Origin: Ignavibacteria bacterium RIFOXYC2_FULL_35_21 | GTDB lineage: Bacteria > Bacteroidota > Ignavibacteria > Kapaibacteriales > UBA2268 | Length of the DNA: 64,000 nucleotides | Direction of reading: 5' to 3' | Assembly (NCBI GenBank): GCA_001804705.1 | Contig: MHAY01000038.1 | Coordinates: 1,738-65,737, forward strand | Shown here: piece after piece, positions 15,780 through 63,599 of the stretch | Layout: each line of letters opens with the position of its first letter | How positions within the stretch are numbered: position 1 is the first letter of the stretch | The notes under the pieces: generated by a model | Seen by the model: only the letters and a program-made list of their open reading frames with translations | What the model was told of the DNA's origin: nothing | Database searches by the model: none | Program-made: the position numbers and the translations under genes

Positions 15780-16214
15780 TCATACAATCTCAATACAATT
15801 CTGTGCTGTTGCTATTATTTCTTCAAGTTCTTTATTTTCGTTGCCTAATATTTTTACTATTCTTTCAGTTGAGATACATTTGATTTGATAGCAGTTCACT
15901 GCAATTTTTACATTCAATCCGTTTTGTTTATTTGGTACAAGTTTGTACAGCCACCAAATTTTATCAAAATCATTTTTCCATGTTGTGATAGGTGCAACTA
16001 TTTTTAAATCCAAACCCACAGCAAAATTGCCATTAATAATAATTGCAGGTCTGATTTTTTTTATATTCATGTTATTTTTATCACTCTTCGATAAACTCAG
16101 AGTGACGCCAGGGTTTGTCATACTGAGCCTGTCGAAGTATGACCCTCCAATTGTCGGATTGAAATCAATTAGACAAATATCTCCCTGCTTTACTTCGATA
16201 GACTTGGATTTCAT
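15780..16214 (-). CDS. PemK/MazF-fold toxin carrying a 21-codon in-frame repeat insertion
   Basis: KQGDICLIDFNPTIGG...KKIRPAIIINGN...VAPITT. 4-nt overlap with the upstream RHH gene. Confidence 0.7.
   Translation of the reverse strand: MKSKSIEVKQGDICLIDFNPTIGGSYFDRLSMTNPGVTLSLSKSDKNNMNIKKIRPAIIINGNFAVGLDLKIVAPITTWKNDFDKIWWLYKLVPNKQNGLNVKIAVNCYQIKCISTERIVKILGNENKELEEIIATAQNCIEIV
16081..16143. mobile_element. 63-bp double-hairpin repeat element inserted in frame in the toxin gene
   Basis: The reverse complement matches 62927..62989 perfectly over both arms (27+26 nt). Only the 10-nt spacer differs. Confidence 0.85.
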
Positions 16215-26926: not shown

Positions 26927-27275
26927 AAAATCATCCCAATCACATAAATCACACAAATCACATTTCCGGCAATTTACATTTCTGTGTGAGATTAACCCCA
27001 TGCTTCAGCATGGGGGGACAAGAGACGAGACCCACAGACACACCCCACCACACTTTAAAAAGTGGGTTTAACAAAATCATCCCAATCACATAAATCACAC
27101 AAATCACAGTTCCGGCAATTTACGTTTCTGTGTGAGATTAACCCCATGCTTCAGCATGGGGGGACAAGAGACGAGACCCACAGACATACCACACCCCACT
27201 TTAAAAAGTGGGTTTAACAAAATCATCCCAATCACATAAATCACACAAATCACAATTCCGGCAACTTGCATCCTT
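26927..27275 (+). repeat. 146-bp tandem repeat, about 2.4 copies, each with conserved hairpins
   Basis: Units start at 26927, 27073 and 27219 and are near-identical. A related single copy lies at 37316..37425. Confidence 0.9.
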
Positions 27276-28013: not shown

Positions 28014-28199
28014 TATATAACTAAAAAACCTCCCTTCACCCTTGGGAGAAAAGTCGTGGTTGAGGGATTTCATTAAGAATTTAGAATTGAAAATTTATTG
28101 AAAATTGAAAATTCTATACTAATAGTCAAAAGTCTAATTTAAAAGGTGACTGACGACTAAAGACTAACGACTAAAGACTAATAAAATGTTAATTGTGAA

Positions 28200-28345
28200 T
28201 TAAAGTTGATAAACTTTCAGCATATTATCGGGCATGATGCTTCCTGCAGACAGACCGGCAACGAATACGATGTAATCACCCGGTTTGATGTAATCAATAT
28301 TGAGCTTGTATTCACGTAGTTTGAAGAACTGTGATATTCATATTT
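28200..28345 (-). pseudogene. Orphan duplicate of the 3' end of pyk (last ~45 codons plus stop)
   Basis: In the pyk frame it reads ..FFKLREYKLNIDYIKPGDYIVFVAGLSAGSIMPDNMLKVYQL*, versus the authentic ..IFNKLREYLINLDYIKPGDYIVFVAGLSAGSIMPDNMLKVYQL*. Confidence 0.85.
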
Positions 28346-28515: not shown

Positions 28516-28818
28516 ATGAAAAGTAATAATTACTCCGCTAATAAAACTGAATTTTCTTATATTATTGATGAGGCTGAACAGGAGTTATTTATATCAGAAT
28601 TGCAATATGGAATTGACATTCTAAGCAGCAAAGATGAAGTTGTTAAGATGAAAATTTATAAAAACCTGATAAGTGATTTGTCCAAAGCCAAAAGTAAACA
28701 ATCGTTATCTATTGAAAAGTCAGATATCATTGAAGTTCTTGAGAATTTCAGAACAGATTCAATTGAAAAAATTGCATTGAAAAAAAAGTTAATTGCACTT
28801 TTGCCTCAAGTAGATTGA
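28516..28818 (+). CDS. Hypothetical 100-aa protein
   Basis: Strong SD (aaaggagg) 7 nt before the ATG. No motif recognised. Confidence 0.5.
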   Translation: MKSNNYSANKTEFSYIIDEAEQELFISELQYGIDILSSKDEVVKMKIYKNLISDLSKAKSKQSLSIEKSDIIEVLENFRTDSIEKIALKKKLIALLPQVD

Positions 28819-28978: not shown

Positions 28979-28999
28979 ATTTTCATTAGTAATTAGTAA

Positions 29000-30490
29000 T
29001 TAAAGCTGATAAACTTTCAGCATATTGTCGGGCATGATGCTTCCTGCAGACAGACCGGCAACGAATACGATGTAATCACCGGGTTTGATATAATCAAGAT
29101 TGATTAAATATTCACGCAATTTATTAAATATATCTTCGGGAGTTATATCCGCAGGCACGAGCCGGGCTTCAATTCCCCATACAAAAGAATTAAGCCGACG
29201 CTGTGTGTGTGCAATTTCAGTCAGGGCAACTATAGGAATTTTGGGCCTGTACTTTGCAATATTTTTTGCAGTGAAACCCGAACTTGTGAGTGGTACAATC
29301 GCCGCCGCTTTGATTTGTTCGGCAATCACGCAGGATGCCCTTCCGAGAGCATCACCTACTTCTATTAGCTGCTGGGGTTCAAAATTTTGTACTCTTTCAA
29401 TATACGGGGGTTCGAAATTTTGAACCCCTACAACATTTGGTAGGCTTACGTTTTTATGGCTGATATCATATTTTTCTTCGATTACCCTGATGATTCTGTT
29501 CATATAATCAACTGCCTCGAAGGGATATTTGCCTGTGCTGGTTTCGCCGCTGAGCATAACGCAGTCGGTGCCGTCAAGCACGGCATTTGCAACATCGCTG
29601 GCTTCGGCTCTGGTCGGCCTTGGATTTTCAATCATTGACTCCAGCATCTGAGTTGCAATAATAACCGGTTTGCCATGATAGTTGCATTTTTTAATTATTT
29701 CTTTTTGAAGCACGGGAACGGTTTCGGCGGGGAGTTCCAAACCGAGGTCACCGCGAGCAACCATGATAGCATCTGATTCCATGATAATATCCTCGATGTC
29801 CTCATATCCTTCGTAACGCTCAATTTTCGAGATGACGGGAATCACTCTTCCGAAAATTTTCATTGCGGCTTTGAGCTCGATCACATCGGTTTCCGACCTG
29901 ACGAAAGAGAGACCAACGGCATCCACACCCTCATTCAAGCCGAATTTCAAATCGTCAATATCTTTTTCACTCATCGAAGGAGCCTTGCTGGAAACACCGG
30001 GAGCAATAATTCCTTTGTTATCTTTTAATGTTCCACCCTTGATGACCCTTGTGATAATGTCATTCTTCGTGATTTTTTCGATACTGAGAATAATATAGCC
30101 ATCGTCGAGAAGAATAGTGTTGCCGGGCTTTACCTCGTTGATTAAATCTTTATATGTTGTGCCGACTCTTTCAGAATTACCAAATGCTACATCTTCAACA
30201 GTGATTGTGAAAAGATTATCATCAGTAAGCTGTACAGAGCCGTTTTCAACTTTTCCCGTTCTGATTTTTGGTCCCTGAAGGTCTTGAAGTATAGCAACGG
30301 GCTTTCCTGTTGCATCGGAAGCGGCTCTAATATTTTTTATGGTTTGTGCATGATAGTCGTGAGTGCCGTGAGAAAAATTCAATCTTGCGGCATCCATCCC
30401 TGCATTTATTAATTTAATAAGGCTCTCGACAGAATCGGTGGAAGGACCTATCGTGCAAATTATTTTCGTTCTTCTTGGCAATGTGTTCAT
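29000..30490 (-). CDS. pyk: Pyruvate kinase carrying an in-frame REP-derived insertion
   Basis: RRTKIICTIGPST, MVARGDLG and other PK motifs. Full-length A, B and C domains. Confidence 0.95.
   Translation of the reverse strand: MNTLPRRTKIICTIGPSTDSVESLIKLINAGMDAARLNFSHGTHDYHAQTIKNIRAASDATGKPVAILQDLQGPKIRTGKVENGSVQLTDDNLFTITVEDVAFGNSERVGTTYKDLINEVKPGNTILLDDGYIILSIEKITKNDIITRVIKGGTLKDNKGIIAPGVSSKAPSMSEKDIDDLKFGLNEGVDAVGLSFVRSETDVIELKAAMKIFGRVIPVISKIERYEGYEDIEDIIMESDAIMVARGDLGLELPAETVPVLQKEIIKKCNYHGKPVIIATQMLESMIENPRPTRAEASDVANAVLDGTDCVMLSGETSTGKYPFEAVDYMNRIIRVIEEKYDISHKNVSLPNVVGVQNFEPPYIERVQNFEPQQLIEVGDALGRASCVIAEQIKAAAIVPLTSSGFTAKNIAKYRPKIPIVALTEIAHTQRRLNSFVWGIEARLVPADITPEDIFNKLREYLINLDYIKPGDYIVFVAGLSAGSIMPDNMLKVYQL
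29372..29433. repeat. REP-like palindrome (GGGGTTC/GAACCCC family, about 1.5 copies) inside the pyk reading frame
   Basis: ctggggttcaaaattttgtactctttcaatatacgggggttcgaaattttgaacccctacaac, translated as VVGVQNFEPPYIERVQNFEPQQ. Confidence 0.85.
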
Positions 30491-32897: not shown

Positions 32898-34379
32898 CTA
32901 ATAGGCGCCCTTACCTGAAAATACAACAGCAATGGTTCTTGCCAAGATATACAAGTCCAGGAACATAGACCAGTTGCGGATGTAGTAAACATCAATTATA
33001 TTTCTTTCTTCGAAGCTTGAAGCATTCCTATCGGTAACCTGCCAAAGTCCGCTGATTCCGGGCTTAACATTAAGGATCATCTCTTCATGCCCGTTCATTT
33101 TATATTTTTCCCAGGGCATGTATGCTCTTGGCCCAATGAGACTCATCTCGCCCTTAATAACATTGATAAATTGAGGCAGTTCATCGAGGCTGAATTTTCT
33201 GAGAAATTTTCCTACTCTTGTCATCCTTGGGTCATTTCTCAACTTATGATATACTTCATATTCACTTTTCAAATTATTGTCGTTTTTCAACAGATGGGAT
33301 AATCTGTCTTCAGCATCAATGTGCATTGTCCTGAATTTTACAATATCGAACCTTCCGTCGCCGATTCCCATTCTTTCCTGTCTGAATAGTACTTTACCTT
33401 TTGAATCAATCCATATCATTGCAGAAATAAAGAGGCAAATAGGTAATGCAATCATTCCGAGGCTTATAGATAAAATTAAATCGAAAGTTCTTTTCTTTAT
33501 CCTGGATGATTTTCTGAGAAGCCTTTGCTGTACTTCCAATCCAAGAATACCGCCCAAATCTCTTGTCGAAACCCAAAGGCTTGTTAATCCGAATAAGTCC
33601 GGGATAACCGTTGTCTGGCTAAAAAATTTAGAATATTTTTCAATAATTTCTTTTTGTCTGATTCTCGGAACTTTTGGCATAGCAATTATTGAATGGTCAA
33701 CGTTAAGCCTGTGAGCCAATTCGGGGATTGTTTCCAAGCCACCGATTACCGGAATTTTGTCGATATACCCCCATCTGTTAATATCATCATCGACGGCAAC
33801 GAGTGGCCTTAAGCCGATTTGCTTATGTTTCATCAAAGATTTTATTACCTTTTCTCCCGATTCACCTGCGCCAATAACCAAAACAGGAATACCCCACCAG
33901 GATTTTGACGAGCACATTTTTCTGATTGCAGACCTTCCGATAGGTACTAATGCCAGAGATAATAACCAGGAAAGAAGGAAGGCTATTCTGGAATACTCCC
34001 ATGAACCTTTTAGCAGGAAACTCATGGCGGCTACTATTGCATAGACAATTGTAATGCTGTATGTGAGGTTTTTTAATTCGTCTATGATGTCAATTCCGAA
34101 ACCGGGATATAAACCCCTGAAGTAGAAAGCAAGTGGAAAAAAGAGAATAATTATCGGTACTATGTTAACATAATATCCCAAATCAACTTCACCTGCCCAT
34201 ATTAAATCTCTCAGGAAAAGCGAAAGAAACATGGTTAAAGAAAGAACGATGATATCAACCAGAAAGAGAATTATGCCGGCTGAAAGCCTCCGGAAAAAGA
34301 TATTTCTCCTGTTTATAGGCTCTACCTTTGGTGCTGCAAGGAGCTTAGTCAGTTCCTTTAAATCGAGTGTTTCCATCAA
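32898..34379 (-). CDS. Polyprenyl-phosphate sugar phosphotransferase (WbaP/EpsB-like initiating transferase)
   Basis: N-terminal TM block, Rossmann-like middle, C-terminal DELPQFINVIKGEMSLIGPR. Confidence 0.85.
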   Translation of the reverse strand: MMETLDLKELTKLLAAPKVEPINRRNIFFRRLSAGIILFLVDIIVLSLTMFLSLFLRDLIWAGEVDLGYYVNIVPIIILFFPLAFYFRGLYPGFGIDIIDELKNLTYSITIVYAIVAAMSFLLKGSWEYSRIAFLLSWLLSLALVPIGRSAIRKMCSSKSWWGIPVLVIGAGESGEKVIKSLMKHKQIGLRPLVAVDDDINRWGYIDKIPVIGGLETIPELAHRLNVDHSIIAMPKVPRIRQKEIIEKYSKFFSQTTVIPDLFGLTSLWVSTRDLGGILGLEVQQRLLRKSSRIKKRTFDLILSISLGMIALPICLFISAMIWIDSKGKVLFRQERMGIGDGRFDIVKFRTMHIDAEDRLSHLLKNDNNLKSEYEVYHKLRNDPRMTRVGKFLRKFSLDELPQFINVIKGEMSLIGPRAYMPWEKYKMNGHEEMILNVKPGISGLWQVTDRNASSFEERNIIDVYYIRNWSMFLDLYILARTIAVVFSGKGAY

Positions 34380-34489: not shown

Positions 34490-34517
34490 GCAGGGATTCA
34501 AAATTTTGAACCCCTAC
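34490..34517. repeat. REP-like palindrome, GGGGTTC family
   Basis: gcagggattcaaaattttgaacccctac. Confidence 0.8.
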
Positions 34518-34724
34518 AATAGCAAAAATACATGCCTAAACATTGCTTATGCAAAATCAAATGATATAAAGCCGAAAAAATTTATATATGATAAACCCTG
34601 TAATAATTTATGTTAATTGGTAGGAAATTAGGGCATTATTTATTTCATTAGTTAATAAATCGTTTTTTCAATTGCAAATATATAATCTTTTTTGAAAAAA
34701 CGAAAGAAAAAAATAAATATTGTT

Positions 34725-34752
34725 GTAGGGGTTCAAGATTTAGAACCCCTAC
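34725..34752. repeat. REP-like palindrome, GGGGTTC family, with both GTAG and CTAC feet
   Basis: gtaggggttcaagatttagaacccctac. Confidence 0.85.
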
Positions 34753-34782
34753 AATAATTGATTTTTATCCCCTTTTTCCTAC

Positions 34783-35562
34783 CTATCTATATATACCTCT
34801 CTGCGAAATTTCAATAAATTCAATACAATGCATCACTTCCGGTGATATGGTTTTTCTTTCCTTAAATTTCTTTATACCATCAGAATTATTAAAACCCGAG
34901 TGTATAAGGATTTTATAAAACTCATCAATTTCATTTATTAATTCATCTGAGAATCCTCGTCGTTTGAGCCCAATCTTGTTTATGCCATCCACCTTAGGTG
35001 GATTTGTACCAATAAGGGTGAACGGAGCCACATCTTTTGCAAGCTTTACGTCAGCTCCTATCATTGAATGCATTCCCACTCTGCAAAATTGATGTATCTT
35101 TACTGCACCTCCGATAAATGCCCAGTCTTCAACGTGTACATGGCCACCAAGCTGTGTTACATTTGCCATTATGACATTATTACCAACTTTACAATCATGT
35201 GCAATATGGCAGTAAGCCATAATAAAACAGTCAGTACCTACATTTGTTTCCATTGTTGATTTGGTGGCTCTATTGACAGTTACAAATTCTCTGAGGACTG
35301 TTCTGTCAGCAATAATTGCAAAGGTTTTTTCTCCGCCGAATTTCAAATCCTGTGGCTCTGTTGCAATGACAGTTCCGGTATAAATTTTACAATCTATTCC
35401 TATTCTTGCACCGTCGGCAATCACAACAGAGGAACGAATTTCTGTGTTGTCACCAATCTCTACATCGTCATGAATTATGGAATAAGGTCCTATTTTAACA
35501 TTCTCGCCAATTTTTGCTTTTTTTGATATAATAGCAGTTGGATGATGTAATACTTCACTCAT
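34783..35562 (-). CDS. lpxA: Acyl-ACP--UDP-N-acetylglucosamine O-acyltransferase
   Basis: Hexapeptide-repeat N-domain plus helical C-domain, 259 aa, adjacent to lpxC-fabZ. Confidence 0.9.
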   Translation of the reverse strand: MSEVLHHPTAIISKKAKIGENVKIGPYSIIHDDVEIGDNTEIRSSVVIADGARIGIDCKIYTGTVIATEPQDLKFGGEKTFAIIADRTVLREFVTVNRATKSTMETNVGTDCFIMAYCHIAHDCKVGNNVIMANVTQLGGHVHVEDWAFIGGAVKIHQFCRVGMHSMIGADVKLAKDVAPFTLIGTNPPKVDGINKIGLKRRGFSDELINEIDEFYKILIHSGFNNSDGIKKFKERKTISPEVMHCIEFIEISQRGIYR

Positions 35563-35595
35563 ATTTAATTTTCATTTGACATTATTCATTTTATT

Positions 35596-35619
35596 GGGCA
35601 GAAAATATTCTGCCCCTAC
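35596..35619. repeat. REP-like palindrome, GGGCAGAA/TTCTGCCC family
   Basis: gggcagaaaatattctgcccctac. Confidence 0.8.
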
Positions 35620-37112: not shown

Positions 37113-37184
37113 TATTAAATTAATTACGAATTATGAATTACGAATTACGAATTAAAATACATTTTACAATTTATATTTTTATTT

Positions 37185-37208
37185 GGGCAGAAAATATTCT
37201 GCCCCTAC
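37185..37208. repeat. REP-like palindrome, GGGCAGAA family
   Basis: Identical to 35596..35619. Confidence 0.8.
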
Positions 37209-37315: not shown

Positions 37316-37425
37316 GAATTAACCCCATGCTTCAGCATGGGGGGCAACAAGAGACGAGACCCACAGCTTCGCCCAGCCCCCATCTTAAAAGATGGGGTTA
37401 ATCAAAATCATCATAATTACATTTA
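37316..37425 (+). repeat. Dispersed copy of the 146-bp repeat family
   Basis: attaaccccatgcttcagcatgggggg..agagacgagacccacag..ccccatcttaaaagatggggttaat..aaaatcatca. Confidence 0.8.
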
Positions 37426-37456
37426 TCACACTAAACAAAATTTCGACACAATTAAA

Positions 37457-38803: not shown

Positions 38804-38875
38804 GGGGTTCAAAATTTTGAACCCCAACTATTTATTTCCCGATTAACAAATGGACAGAAAATATTCTGTCCCTAC
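38804..38875. repeat. Two REP-like palindromes (GGGGTTC family and GGACAGAA variant)
   Basis: ggggttcaaaattttgaacccc and ggacagaaaatattctgtccctac. Confidence 0.8.
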
Positions 38876-38949: not shown

Positions 38950-39059
38950 GTAGGGATTCAAAATTTTGCATCCTTACACAACCGAAACGAAGGATTTTAT
39001 TTTTTCTCAGGGATTCAAAATTTTGCATCCTTACACAACCGAAACGAAGGGTTTAGATT
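38950..39059. repeat. 57-bp tandem duplication containing a degenerate REP
   Basis: (g)tagggattcaaaattttgcatccttacacaaccgaaacgaagg occurs twice. This accounts for the track ORF 38932..39129. Confidence 0.9.
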
Positions 39060-48261: not shown

Positions 48262-48463
48262 TCATAGAGAGCGAAAAAATCCCAAAATAAAATGAACAAG
48301 GAGATGAAATTTGACATGATTTGTTGAATTTATTCTCTTTGTTCAATCTTTATTTTTCCATTTCTTAAAAAGATTGGGTTTGAATCTGAAAACAATCCAA
48401 TAATACTTTATCATATTCGATTAATAATATTATAGAATAAACAGTAATCCTTAGCTAAATCAA

Positions 48464-51400
48464 ATGAAAAAGACTAAAATATTGTTTATATCATTTCTCA
48501 TTGCTATTATATTAGCTACTATTACAGATTGCTTATGTCAGTATCCTGATTGGGAGAACTTAACATCAAATTATGTTAATGCCGTTGTTGATGACGGAAC
48601 ATATATCTGGACTGGAGGCTGCGGAGTTGCGAGGATTAACAAACTTACCGGTGAAATTACTTATTATAATCATGCGAATTCGGGATTGGTGCATAATGAG
48701 GTGAAGTGCTTGGCTGTGGATTCGGGGGGTGTTTTATGGATAGGTATTTGGGGAGGAGGATTGGGAAGTTTTGACGGAAAGGATTGGAAAATATACGATA
48801 CAAAAAATTCGGGACTGCCTGATGATTATGTGCAAGCGATTTTGGTTGACAGTGGGGGGGTGATATGGATAGGAACATGGTACAGGGGTTTGGTGAGGTT
48901 TGACGGGACGAGCTGGAATGTTTTTAATACAGGTAATTCGGGACTGCCGGATAATGACATTACTTCGATTGCGGTTGACGGGTATGGGAATAAGTGGATA
49001 GGGACGAAGTACAATGGCGTTGTGAGGTATAATGGGACGAATTGGTTGGTTTATAAGGTTGGGACATCGGGAATGTCCAATAATTTTGTTAAGTGCGTGT
49101 GTGTTGATTTGTATGATAATGTGTGGATAGGCACTTGGGGTTCGGGATTGGTTAAATACACCGGCACAATGTGGTATGTATATGACATGGATAGGACGGG
49201 GATACCTGATGATTTTGTTAATACGGTGAATGTTGACAAAAGGGGTGATGTATGGGTAGGTACGGCAAACGGAGGAATGGCGAAGTATAATGGTATGTGG
49301 TGGGTTGTGTATCAGACTTTTAATTCAAGCCTGAAAGATAATAATATCACTTCGATATGTATTGACAGAAATGATTGTAAATGGATTGGGACGATGACGG
49401 GTGGTGTTACAAAGTTTGATGATGTAAAATGGACAAATTATACGACAGGTAATTCGGGATTACCGAATAATGTTGTGATTAAAGTGAATATTGACAAATC
49501 CCGGAATAAATGGATTTCAACGAGAATTGGCGGACTTGCAAAGTTCGACGGAACAAACTGGGAAGTGTATAACAAAACAAATTCGGGGATTCCGGATAAT
49601 GATGTTCAGGTATTGACGATTGATGATTCTGATGCTAAATGGATTGGGACGTATGGAGGAGGTTTTGCAAAATTTGCCGGAAATAGTTGGTTTGTTTATA
49701 ATACTTCAAACTCCCCTCTGCCGGATGACGAGGTGCAGGCGATTTTGGTTGACAGAATTGGTAATAAGTGGATAGGTACAACAGGGATGGGATTGGTGAA
49801 ATATGACGGGAGCAATTGGACATTATATAATACATCAAATTCGGGTTTGACTGATGACTGGATTCAGGCTATAGCTGTTGATTCGACTGATAATATCTGG
49901 ATAGGGACATGGTTTGGGGGATTGATAAAGTATGACGGTATTGACTGGACGGTGTTTAACTCGCTTAACTCGGGTTTGCCTGTAGATGAAATCCAATCAA
50001 TTGTTGTAGATGAAAATAATAATAAATGGATTGGCACTTTTGGAGGTGGAGTTGCCAAATTAGACAGTTCAGTATGGACTGTTTATAATACAACAAATTC
50101 GAGATTGCCGGATAACCATGTCGTGTGTATTACTATTGACAGCATTGGTAATAAATGGGTAGGAACAGCGAACGGTGGAATGGCATTTTTTAACGATAAG
50201 GGATGGATGCAGTTCAATTCTAAAAATTCTGGATTGCCGGACGATTATGTTACGGGCATTGCTGTCGATGAGAATGGATATGGCTGGATTGGCACACTGA
50301 GAGGGGGATTAGCACTGCTGAAGAAGGCTTTGAATTTTCCCGAAGAGATTGTATTTCAACTTAAAAGCAGTGATGATACTGTCTGTGCCGGGGAAAGTGT
50401 GAATTTGGGGATAGAAAAAATTATCAAGGGAGGAATCAAGCCATTTACATATTCATGGACACCGAAATTAAATATCATCGATTCATCGGTTGATTCTGTG
50501 CTAGAGGTGCAACCGAGTACATCGAGGACTTATACACTTAGGTTAATAGACTCAAATATTCCACAGGATACCGCTTATTCAAGTATATATATTCATGTTA
50601 ATCAATTACCTGCAAAGCCTGTAATAGCAGGCAGAAATGACACATTATTTTCAAGTTCTTCTTCAAAGTATCAATGGTACGTTGATAGTATGCTTATGAA
50701 TGGGGAGACGAAGCGGTACGTAATACCACCAAAGAATGGAATATATTTTGTTGAAATAACCGATTCAAACGGCTGTTCCTCCATGTCTGATTTATTTTCT
50801 TATTCTTTTAATTCATCAGCGACAATTACAGTAGCTGATTGTGAAGGTTCTATTGGAGATACCATTGATGTTAAAATCTTTTTATCGGGCAAACATGACC
50901 TTGAGTATTCTAGTTTAACAGGATTCTCAGGTGATTTGAATATGAACTATTCTTTACTCTATCCGGTTTCCGTTACATCTCGTGGGATTGTTAATGATGG
51001 AGAAAGAATAATATCATTGTTGATGCCGCTACCTTTAGATGGAGATTCAACATTAGCTTCAATGAAATTCCGGGTGATTTTAGGAAATGATACGGTATCG
51101 AATTTATCCTTATTTGATGTAAAAGGAATCGATGCTGATATTCCGATTGCTGTTAAAGATGGTATATTCAGATTAAAAGGGTATTGCAATGAAGGCGGGC
51201 CAAGGCTTGTAAACACTAATATTCCACTATCACTAAAAATTGTATCTGAAAATCCTGCTAGAGATGAAAGTAAGTTGGAGTTTTCTTTAATCGAAGAATC
51301 ATTTATTGAACTTTCATTATTCAATGTGAATGGCATAAAGGTTGAAACTTTTATTAGTGATTATTTTAAGCAGGGTAGATTCGCTAAAATAATAAATTTA

Positions 51401-51484
51401 AAAAATGTGTCATCAGGATTTTATTTAATTACTTTAAAAACACCAACTAGAACAATTTCGAAATGGCTGTGTGTGCTGAAATGA
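48464..51484 (+). CDS. Two-component-regulator-propeller (Reg_prop) repeat protein with Ig-like region and T9SS C-terminal domain
   Basis: About 13 repeats of W(I/V)GT..GGL.K(F/Y)DG..W.VYNT.NSGLPD..V..I.VD. Tail ..ENPA..SGFYLITL. Confidence 0.8.
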   Translation: MKKTKILFISFLIAIILATITDCLCQYPDWENLTSNYVNAVVDDGTYIWTGGCGVARINKLTGEITYYNHANSGLVHNEVKCLAVDSGGVLWIGIWGGGLGSFDGKDWKIYDTKNSGLPDDYVQAILVDSGGVIWIGTWYRGLVRFDGTSWNVFNTGNSGLPDNDITSIAVDGYGNKWIGTKYNGVVRYNGTNWLVYKVGTSGMSNNFVKCVCVDLYDNVWIGTWGSGLVKYTGTMWYVYDMDRTGIPDDFVNTVNVDKRGDVWVGTANGGMAKYNGMWWVVYQTFNSSLKDNNITSICIDRNDCKWIGTMTGGVTKFDDVKWTNYTTGNSGLPNNVVIKVNIDKSRNKWISTRIGGLAKFDGTNWEVYNKTNSGIPDNDVQVLTIDDSDAKWIGTYGGGFAKFAGNSWFVYNTSNSPLPDDEVQAILVDRIGNKWIGTTGMGLVKYDGSNWTLYNTSNSGLTDDWIQAIAVDSTDNIWIGTWFGGLIKYDGIDWTVFNSLNSGLPVDEIQSIVVDENNNKWIGTFGGGVAKLDSSVWTVYNTTNSRLPDNHVVCITIDSIGNKWVGTANGGMAFFNDKGWMQFNSKNSGLPDDYVTGIAVDENGYGWIGTLRGGLALLKKALNFPEEIVFQLKSSDDTVCAGESVNLGIEKIIKGGIKPFTYSWTPKLNIIDSSVDSVLEVQPSTSRTYTLRLIDSNIPQDTAYSSIYIHVNQLPAKPVIAGRNDTLFSSSSSKYQWYVDSMLMNGETKRYVIPPKNGIYFVEITDSNGCSSMSDLFSYSFNSSATITVADCEGSIGDTIDVKIFLSGKHDLEYSSLTGFSGDLNMNYSLLYPVSVTSRGIVNDGERIISLLMPLPLDGDSTLASMKFRVILGNDTVSNLSLFDVKGIDADIPIAVKDGIFRLKGYCNEGGPRLVNTNIPLSLKIVSENPARDESKLEFSLIEESFIELSLFNVNGIKVETFISDYFKQGRFAKIINLKNVSSGFYLITLKTPTRTISKWLCVLK

Positions 51485-59913: not shown

Positions 59914-60052
59914 ATAGCCACTACTTTTAAGTAGTGGTGATAGTTCATTCTCACAAATAGGGATTGAACTCTGTAGAGACAGGTCTGAGACCTGTCTCTA
60001 CGTCGGAAATTTATGGCTATAAACCTCCACTATCTGAAGATAGTGGCTATTC
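59914..60052. repeat. Cluster of three palindromes, including a GTAG-AGACAGG family REP
   Basis: ccactacttttaagtagtgg, gtagagacaggtctgagacctgtctctac (59973..60001), ccactatctgaagatagtgg. Confidence 0.8.
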
Positions 60053-62864: not shown

Positions 62865-63026
62865 ATTTAAAGGGTATTACTAAATTGGTACACAAACCAT
62901 TCAAAATGAAGTATAATCATATTAAAGTCATACTTCGACAGGCTCAGTATGACATTCAGTATTGTCACTCTGAGTTTATCGAAGAGTGATAAGAAAATGT
63001 ATATATTTTAGTAATACCATTTAAAG
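62865..63026. mobile_element. MITE-like element: 20-bp terminal inverted repeats around the 63-bp double-hairpin core
   Basis: atttaaagggtattactaaa versus the reverse complement of tttagtaataccatttaaag (18/20 match). Core at 62927..62989. Confidence 0.6.
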
Positions 63027-63570: not shown

Positions 63571-63599
63571 GTAGAGACAGAACTAAGTTCTGTCTCTAC
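63571..63599. repeat. REP-like palindrome, GTAG-AGACAG family
   Basis: gtagagacagaactaagttctgtctctac. Confidence 0.85.

Follow-up and report, generated by a model that had tools for sequence, protein, structure and literature searches.

The pyk locus and its in-frame insert

The pyruvate kinase gene pyk (29000..30490, minus strand) of the Ignavibacteria bacterium RIFOXYC2_FULL_35_21 lies in a 64,000-nucleotide stretch of contig MHAY01000038.1, called here the window, and contains a short insert made of two units of a repetitive extragenic palindrome (REP), placed in frame with the rest of the coding sequence. The gene was taken from the list of open reading frames (ORFs), and its frame is unbroken over 496 codons. 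The 496-aa product carries the Pfam domains PK (barrel, residues 6-327, E 1e-123) and PK_C (residues 380-493, E 1e-24) and matches pyruvate kinases in the PDB at E about 1e-120. An AlphaFold2 (AF2) model built on a 64-sequence alignment has a mean predicted local distance difference test score (pLDDT) of 89.5 and a predicted template modeling score (pTM) of 0.88, and Foldseek superposes it on the M. tuberculosis and E. coli pyruvate kinases with template modeling (TM) scores of 0.87-0.92. Domains, PDB matches and fold all identify the host gene as a pyruvate kinase.

The insert, delimited by protein and DNA alignments, occupies about 29375..29437 on the minus strand and encodes residues 352-372 (NVVGVQNFEPPYIERVQNFEP). 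Its length of 63 nt, or 21 aa, was measured against the closest insert-free orthologue (DNA alignment with loci L008 and L002), and a proline codon that recurs at both ends leaves 2-3 nt of ambiguity in its borders. The initial annotation had described a REP-like palindrome in frame inside pyk, and the minus strand reads exactly as quoted there: CTA CCA AAT GTT GTA GGG GTT CAA AAT TTC GAA CCC CCG TAT ATT GAA AGA GTA CAA AAT TTT GAA CCC CAG CAG CTA, with the in-frame translation ..SLPNVVGVQNFEPPYIERVQNFEPQQLIEVGD.. in the wider context ..LPNVVGVQNFEPPYIERVQNFEPQQL... Both units derive from the palindrome GGGGTTCAAAATTTTGAACCCC and are spaced 33 nt apart. Unit 1 (29407..29431, minus strand) consists of an intact 22-nt palindrome, GGGGTTCAAAATTTCGAACCCC (29407-29428, 0 mismatches to the pattern introduced below), and a 5' GTAG foot; its 3' CTAC foot is lost (CCGT), and its DNA hairpin has a folding energy of -6.5 kcal/mol (z -2.7). 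Unit 2 (29374..29395, minus strand, 3 mismatches to the pattern) has AGAGTAC for GGGGTTC in the left arm, retains an intact loop and right arm (AAAATTTTGAACCCC), and does not fold alone (DNA fold -0.4 kcal/mol, z +0.4). One palindrome arm of the insert is already decaying in this genome, and the "about 1.5 copies" proposed initially are actually two tandem units, the second of which has lost its left arm.

The insert was placed by the initial annotation in the linker between the catalytic barrel and the C-terminal domain, in agreement with both the Pfam borders and the AF2 model. Residues 347-375 (codons at 29366..29452, minus strand) are the sole segment of the model with pLDDT <50 and have no secondary structure; they separate the final helix of the barrel domain (323-340) from the opening helix of the C domain (378-392). 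The structure prediction that had been suggested as a check for a surface loop thus returned a disordered loop at these residues, and the insert is predicted to be a 21-residue disordered surface loop in the A-domain/C-domain linker that the enzyme would tolerate. Two tryptic peptides are predicted from the insert region, NVSLPNVVGVQNFEPPYIER and VQNFEPQQLIEVGDALGR.

The repeat family and its filled and empty sites

The window was scanned with the pattern GGGGTTCRAAATTTYGAACCCC, allowing up to 3 mismatches, with 100 dinucleotide-preserving shuffles as control. Five matches were found (29407, 29374, 34493, 34728 and 38804), as opposed to 0 in the 100 shuffles, and the intergenic palindromes named in the initial annotation (matched here at 34493, 34728 and 38804) belong to the same family as the pyk units by this pattern. 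Together with two further diverged variants at 38953 and 39010, this makes seven copies in 64 kb versus zero expected; 7 family copies also occur in the 21 kb of L004, the locus of a close relative. All five copies outside pyk lie between the genes of a conserved cluster for the cell envelope, with LpxC/FabZ, acyltransferase, outer-membrane transporter and peptidase C25 members (families assigned from syntenic loci), and a scan of all strong hairpins in the window found, apart from the pyk insert, no repeat-family palindrome deep inside a long ORF.

The intergenic copies are recorded without a strand. The first (34493..34514), with GCAG..CTAC feet, was identified by pattern match, has an orthologous copy in L004, and is located between a Bac_transf (sugar transferase) gene (32898-34379) and a hexapeptide-repeat acyltransferase gene (34783-35562). 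The second (34728..34749) has both GTAG and CTAC feet, which extend it to a 28-mer (34725-34752) inside a 40-nt palindrome (34719-34758), and its hairpin has an energy of -12.2 kcal/mol (z -6.6). The third (38804..38825) is a perfect 22-nt core by pattern match and fold, and the two diverged variants (GGGATTCAAAATTTTGCATCC) stand in tandem, 57 nt apart, at 38953..39031. The family consists of short self-complementary stem-loops within the 20-40 bp range, 22 nt in pyk and 28-40 nt at the intergenic copies, and the REP hairpins tested fold more stably than shuffled sequences, except for the decayed pyk unit 2. A 5' foot of the form GT[AG]G and a 3' foot of the form C[TC]AC are both present at 34725-34752; among the pyk copies, unit 1 of the window retains GTAG only and unit 2 of L004 retains CTAC. 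A different palindrome family is represented by perfect double-foot 29-mers, GTAGAGACAG..CTGTCTCTAC, at 59973-60001 and 63571-63599.

A protein search returned four close orthologues of the pyk product (P0001-P0004) within a wider set of 64 homologues; P0001 is encoded at locus L004 and P0003 at L001, and L008 and L002 carry insert-free orthologues. The 21-aa insert is shared by P0001 (94% identical, 496 aa), a 10-aa insert (..GTVVQNFEPQQ..) is found in P0003 (87%, 485 aa), and there is none in P0002 (91% over aligned positions, 475 aa), P0004 (88%, 475 aa) and all more distant pyruvate kinase homologues in the alignment. The roughly 20-aa insertion estimated initially is borne out in this way as one of 21 aa. 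The linker from Y341 to D380 measures 13-19 aa in 58 of the 64 homologues and reaches 38 aa in both the window and P0001, and 27 aa in P0003; longer linkers of 27-28 aa are also found in P0013, P0033 and P0048, where the extra residues are conserved as protein and contain no REP peptide. The gene order SSB, HAD hydrolase, pyk is kept at the orthologous loci. A metagenome scan for more pyk orthologues gave only one locus, L125, with 73% identity.

At the DNA level, pyk of L004 has two near-perfect tandem REP units at the same place, the second of which is a perfect GGGGTTCAAAATTTTGAACCCCTACAA with a perfect left arm and a CTACAA foot, that is, a complete REP, and the dimer folds as DNA at -26.5 kcal/mol. 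In L001 there is a single degenerate 30-nt unit (ACAGTAGTTCAAAATTTTGAACCTCAGCAG). Thus the window, L004 and L001 carry a REP at the pyk site, which is empty in L008 and L002. A second site behaves likewise: the Bac_transf/acyltransferase spacer is alignable in four lineages and has a ~34-nt REP (ATTGTAG..CTACAAT) in the window and L004 only, the site of the 34728 REP being cleanly empty in L001 and L002. Beyond the pyk unit of L001, no further member of the family was found in L001 (12 kb) or L002 (21 kb). The filled, half-filled and empty alleles of close relatives constitute a natural experiment on the entry of a REP into coding DNA, its decay and the origin of a new loop. Neither of the outcomes that would have spoken against the initial annotation occurred. 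The probability that the likeness to the intergenic palindromes is accidental, or that the residues are ancestral linker sequence, appears negligible, given the 5 matches against 0 in 100 shuffles, the lack of these residues in all orthologues but the three insert-bearing ones, and the two near-perfect REPs at the site in L004.

Between the window and L004, pyk without the insert has a nonsynonymous divergence (dN) of 0.027 and a synonymous divergence (dS) of 0.705, a ratio of about 0.04, and since both alleles bear the insert, purifying selection on pyk has persisted since it was gained. The initial claim of an intact reading frame stands in a gene under purifying selection. For the 21 insert codons alone, dN is 0.212 and dS 0.349, and 7 of the 21 loop residues differ, against 4.4% in the rest of the protein. 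The loop is weakly constrained as protein and the rest of the enzyme is under strong purifying selection. Taken with the AF2 model, in which the insert is the only disordered segment, the dN/dS of 0.04 is compatible with a functional host enzyme with a surface-loop insert. It is hardly conceivable that we are dealing with a pseudogene, an assembly artefact or an insert removed at the RNA or protein level, an explanation for which only the general oddity of a strong palindrome in a conserved metabolic gene could be cited: the 496-codon frame is intact, dN/dS has been 0.04 since the split from L004 with the same insert, and there is no intein or intron signature, Pfam showing only PK and PK_C. 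An assembly artefact in particular is excluded because 7 contigs, drawn from at least 4 independent assemblies, carry the P0001 allele.

The insert might instead have acquired a function, either as an mRNA or DNA hairpin affecting translation, mRNA stability or co-translational folding, or as a VQNFEP loop engaged in regulation or interaction. The RNA fold of the insert region (-23.7 kcal/mol, z -4.5) and the DNA fold of the L004 dimer (-26.5 kcal/mol) would agree with this, as would its location exactly at the domain boundary, its retention over about 13% nucleotide divergence, and a dS below that of the remaining gene. We nevertheless regard an acquired function as very unlikely, as the loop diverges fast (7 of 21 residues versus 4.4% elsewhere), the decayed arm in the window means that the hairpin is not conserved, close relatives work without the insert, and the same peptide occurs in unrelated proteins, as for a passenger.

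Transposase-linked relatives in other genomes

By its sequence the element is assigned to the "double-foot" GTAG REPs, core GTAGGGGTTCAAAATTTTGAACCCCTAC, of the type linked to subclass 2.4 genes for REP-associated tyrosine transposases (tnpA_REP/RAYT). The initial label "REP-like" was correct and can be sharpened accordingly. Subclass 2.4 of tnpA_REP corresponds to Bertels group 4 and has the motifs NH[IFV]H, WQ and YIxNNP (Quentin et al. 2018, PMC6006769); its double-foot REPs have 5' GT[AG]G and 3' C[TC]AC, and, uniquely, its tnpA_REP genes themselves harbour in-frame REPs, placed between HuH and Y (PMC6006769).

In a scan of one genome per species, the exact 22-mer was found in at least 116 stretches (loci L009-L124), compared with about 0.1 by chance (our own estimate for uniform base composition). 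By their labels, the source genomes belong to about two dozen major groups, counting phyla, candidate phyla and classes of proteobacteria, among them Ignavibacteria, Bacteroidota, Zixibacteria, KSB1, Chloroflexota, Planctomycetes, Nitrospirae, Deltaproteobacteria, Patescibacteria and Deinococcota; closed chromosomes account for several of the stretches. Nearly all copies among the matches listed carry GTAG..CTAC feet, giving the 28-mer GTAGGGGTTCAAAATTTTGAACCCCTAC, and 79 exact GTAG..CTAC 28-mers in other genomes are among these matches. A literature search did not find the exact 22-mer, the 28-mer or the peptide VGAIHELPL.

A close examination of the palindrome identified a single stop-free frame, GTA GGG GTT CAA AAT TTT GAA CCC CTA, which encodes VGVQNFEPL and is the one used in pyk; the other two frames contain TAG or TGA. 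As the palindrome is the same on both strands and only one frame is free of stops, a surviving coding copy must read VGVQNFEPL. This is what was found in the fetched stretches, where 26 of 133 copies lie within stop-free frames of at least 120 codons and always read VGVQNFEPL, although some of the 26 may fall in spurious ORFs or ahead of the true start codon. The genes with intragenic copies include RimO-like, RseP-like, GAF histidine kinase, radical-SAM, NuoN, M16 peptidase and nine RAYT-like genes. In the RimO-like gene (L028), the REP adds a net of about 4 aa relative to a Thermotoga structure, and in the RseP-like protease (L080) the REP peptide aligns with the PDZ ligand-binding motif with zero net length change. 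On account of these two cases, some intragenic REPs seem to replace residues and not just add them. Annotators who meet peptides such as VGVQNFEPL, VGAENFLPL and VGAKNFSPL in unrelated proteins should read them as footprints of REPs and not as signs of homology.

The flanks of the 28-mers offer a separate observation. Extra perfect palindromy of 8-18 nt, different in each copy, was noted at 11 of the 79 exact 28-mers (L038, L043, L051, L063, L072, L093, L095 and others, mostly Saprospiraceae), where the core seems to occupy the tip of an already existing hairpin, or else to have arisen together with an inverted duplication of its flank.

In the RAYT-like genes of other loci, the palindrome directly follows the HUH motif (MPNHxHGI..PVGVQNFEPLQ..IIPKSIGSI..WQRNYYEHIIR..YIxNNP), and an alignment together with 120 homologues shows the motifs of subclass 2.4, namely NH[IFV]H, WQ, YIxNNP and an in-frame REP between HuH and Y. 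The matches of the proteins to the NCBIfam family REP_Tyr_transpos ("REP-associated tyrosine transposase"), with E values of 1e-12 to 1e-14, fall short of the curated cut-off since the domain is split by the insert, and Pfam Y1_Tnp is matched weakly. The family has at least 7,923 database matches at E <1e-10. Nearly all of the best 120, a list biased toward the query's own peptide by a word-based pre-filter, carry VGVQNFEPL or a sister peptide (VGAENFLPL, VGAKNFSPL, VGVENFQPL) in the HUH-proximal loop, frequently as multiple or partial tandem copies. The identical 28-mer is found inside or adjoining subclass 2.4 genes in other genomes. The tnpA_REP proteins carrying it are only about 50% identical to each other, so that the DNA element is far more conserved than its carrier gene. 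A second palindrome family in the window, GGGCAGAAAATATTCTGCCCCTAC (35595-35619, 37184-37208 and 38851-38875), is nearly the DNA for VGAENFLPL, the sister peptide that other subclass 2.4 tnpA_REP genes have in this loop; for this reason the genome probably hosts at least two related REP families.

One could go further and regard the VGVQNFEPL palindrome as a "coding-compatible" mobile hairpin, with a sequence shaped to survive in genes, and hence as a general generator of surface loops. This would rest on the 28-mer being invariant across about two dozen labelled groups, its single stop-free frame, its presence inside its own transposase gene, and the about one fifth of sampled copies in a long open frame. 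For pyk, the proposal would add that one arm has partly decayed because selection in a gene of core metabolism acts against a strong hairpin or against a site of cleavage by the transposase. We consider this broader proposal improbable.

Origin of the insert and comparison with known systems

Our preferred explanation, which we hold with high confidence, is that a GTAG double-foot REP landed in the linker codons of pyk, was kept in the one open frame and is tolerated as a loop. A small non-autonomous mobile DNA hairpin would have entered the codons joining the catalytic barrel to the C-terminal domain, as a unit of about 30-34 nt in this lineage that is now a tandem dimer of 63 nt. By analogy with the IS200/IS605-type HUH tyrosine transposase paradigm and with PMC6006769, a subclass 2.4 HUH tyrosine transposase (tnpA_REP/RAYT) that works on single-stranded hairpins would mobilise REP copies in trans. 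The insertions would then be filtered by selection on the gene: given a palindrome with identical strands and one stop-free frame, only those in the VGVQNFEPL frame and of a length divisible by three would be retained. The loop would drift in amino acids and the palindrome arm decay while the remaining enzyme stays constrained, and we infer that the loop has no adaptive role. On this explanation, an enzyme of core metabolism can take up 21 residues specified by selfish DNA at a domain linker and still be under normal selection.

Several points weigh against this explanation. Searches by tblastn, with an approximate E. coli RayT probe and the RAYT-like proteins recovered in this analysis as queries, gave no tnpA_REP/RAYT gene, either in the window (64 kb) or in loci L001-L008 of its relatives (2-21 kb), so that for this genome the element is tied to a transposase by analogy. 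Translation of the loop is a prediction from the DNA sequence. The insert dS is lower than that of the remaining gene, in a sample of only 21 codons, which hints at DNA-level constraint or gene conversion. Finally, the insert-bearing pyk genes are not monophyletic: in the gene tree outside the linker, the window and P0001 group with the insert-free P0002 (bootstrap 100%), and P0003 groups with the insert-free P0004 (bootstrap 92%). The history of the pyk insert is no simple single gain.

Two histories were compared. The gene tree, pairing L001 with the insert-free L002 and the window with the insert-free L008, is what independent insertions at one hotspot would produce, in the window and L004 on the one side and in L001 on the other. 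The REP family is also lacking from syntenic intergenic sites of L001 and L002, and other loops, for example that of tnpA_REP, clearly gain REPs repeatedly. However, both pyk junctions are identical between the window and L001, on the left (CCN AAT G..) as well as on the right (..GAA CCY CAG CAG YTA ATA GAA GT), and within about 50 nt of the insert 7 of 9 quartet-informative sites group the window with L001, compared with 24 of 125 gene-wide (binomial estimate, p about 2e-4), which favours a shared origin of the short tract. The phylogenetic signal around the insert (about 29320-29490) was seen to conflict with the gene-wide quartet signal of 75:24:26, and this local conflict suggests a short recombination tract carrying the REP. 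Independent insertion thus seems unlikely to us. The most economical history, judged from these sites and junctions, would be a single REP-tract origin followed by short-patch recombination between lineages, by which the REP-bearing pyk tract may have crossed lineages, or by ancestral polymorphism with precise loss.

A related question is whether both units entered as REPs. Only one may have been inserted, with the second unit arising through slippage as a tandem duplication of the right REP half and flanking codons. The period is exactly 33 nt, the units share CAAAATTTYGAACCCC and a terminal AGTA with 23/33 identity, and L001 has a single 30-nt unit at the same junctions; moreover, tandem arrays of a half-REP plus flank exist in intergenic DNA of this lineage (L004, four repeats) and in tnpA_REP loops (NEPQR x10, P0207). 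Against this, the second unit of L004 is a complete REP, which a half-unit copy cannot yield barring later conversion, and slippage remains in our view a tentative and somewhat less probable origin of the dimer. The arrays themselves are seen at about 5770-5930 of L004, where a second intergenic REP site has grown to four tandem half-REP-plus-flank units, and in the tnpA_REP loop of protein P0207, where NEPQR is repeated 10 times; from these two cases, REP halves appear prone to local tandem amplification.

With a REP insertion as the preferred explanation, the closest known system is that of the GTAG double-foot REPs themselves. They were catalogued by Di Nocera et al. 2013 (PMC3733652), who found them intragenic in several species, with more than half as dimers or groups encoding 20-30 aa, and likened the intragenic copies to the Rickettsia palindromic elements (RPEs). 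The shared features are a short G-C-footed hairpin with 5' GTAG and 3' CTAC, dispersed and mostly intergenic copies (here within the window), filled and empty orthologous sites, and in-frame copies in unrelated genes, including dimers encoding 20-30 aa. What differs here is the lack of a cognate tnpA_REP gene in the 64-kb window and the host, an uncultured Ignavibacteriota/Bacteroidota-like bacterium of the Fibrobacteres-Chlorobi-Bacteroidetes (FCB) group. Since in-frame copies, in unrelated genes as well as in subclass 2.4 tnpA_REP genes, have already been reported (PMC6006769, PMC3733652), the pyk insert is a new example of a described phenomenon and is less unusual than was implied initially. 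"Pyruvate kinase" was not found among the published intragenic cases in the supplements of PMC3733652. The case brings an uncultured lineage of the FCB group into the range of intragenic double-foot REPs and adds no new kind of system; the invariant 28-mer across phyla, its frequent residence in coding DNA and the copy-specific flank palindromy are only partly covered by the published descriptions.

The insert also resembles the RPEs as far as these are summarized in PMC3733652 (Ogata et al. 2000, cited there): in the RPEs, a palindromic repeat lies in frame in conserved genes and is translated as an extra surface segment, with function kept. In pyk, too, the repeat is found in a conserved ORF with the frame preserved and is missing from orthologues. 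It does not belong to the RPE family proper and shares its behaviour only, as RPEs are restricted to Rickettsia and unrelated in sequence, and the pyk-type element is a unit of 28-34 nt found in a different host and in many phyla. RPEs are also the longer elements, with about 100-150 bp for RPE-1. The cyanobacterial small dispersed repeats described by Elhai and colleagues in 2008 are reportedly mobile, about 20-30 nt long, and located inside genes and other hairpins. They form other sequence families that are not known to have a RAYT link, and the comparison serves as a lead only. REPINs (Bertels and Rainey 2011, PMC3116915) are similar in that two REP units can fold into one long hairpin, as does the L004 dimer at -26.5 kcal/mol; they differ in consisting of two inverted one-foot REPs with a spacer, associated with group 2/3 RAYTs in Proteobacteria. 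For the pyk element "tandem" and "inverted" mean the same, because each unit is itself a full palindrome.

Other classes of element were considered and rejected. A miniature transposable element with inverted repeats (MITE) does not fit, as the unit is a single hairpin of about 30 nt without terminal inverted repeats flanking an internal region, and neither the pyk site nor the intergenic ones show any target-site duplication other than an ambiguous 2-3 nt. A CRISPR array, a tRNA T-arm fragment and an intein or intron were ruled out by spacing, structure and domain content. As to a terminator or promoter role, a scan showed no terminator-like site formed by a REP on the coding strand and only generic consensus matches.

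Repeats of other kinds were noted around pyk. A near-identical duplicate of about 110 nt, comprising the last ~35 pyk codons and the stop (28190-28322 versus 28990-29122), lies 800 nt downstream of the gene, with a 100-aa ORF (28516-28818, plus strand) between the two copies of the pyk end, and looks like an insertion into the 3' end of pyk that carried or restored the gene end. Farther downstream, the non-coding segment 26927-27271 holds a 146-nt unit repeated in tandem about 2.4 times (complete at 26927 and at 27073, with a 53-nt partial third copy at 27219), to which a fragment at 37318-37456 is related.

Two more palindrome families occur in the window, CCCCATGCTTCAGCATGGGG in three copies (26996, 27142 and 37323) and GGGGAAGGTTCC..GGAACCTTCCCC in two (25501 and 52364). 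A 69-nt inverted repeat pair (16075-16143 and 62927-62995) is 88% complementary, with its arms 46.8 kb apart. At 48700-50250, at least 11 repeats of 129 nt (43 aa) are contained in a 1009-aa ORF (48455-51481), which is consistent with a repeat-domain protein.

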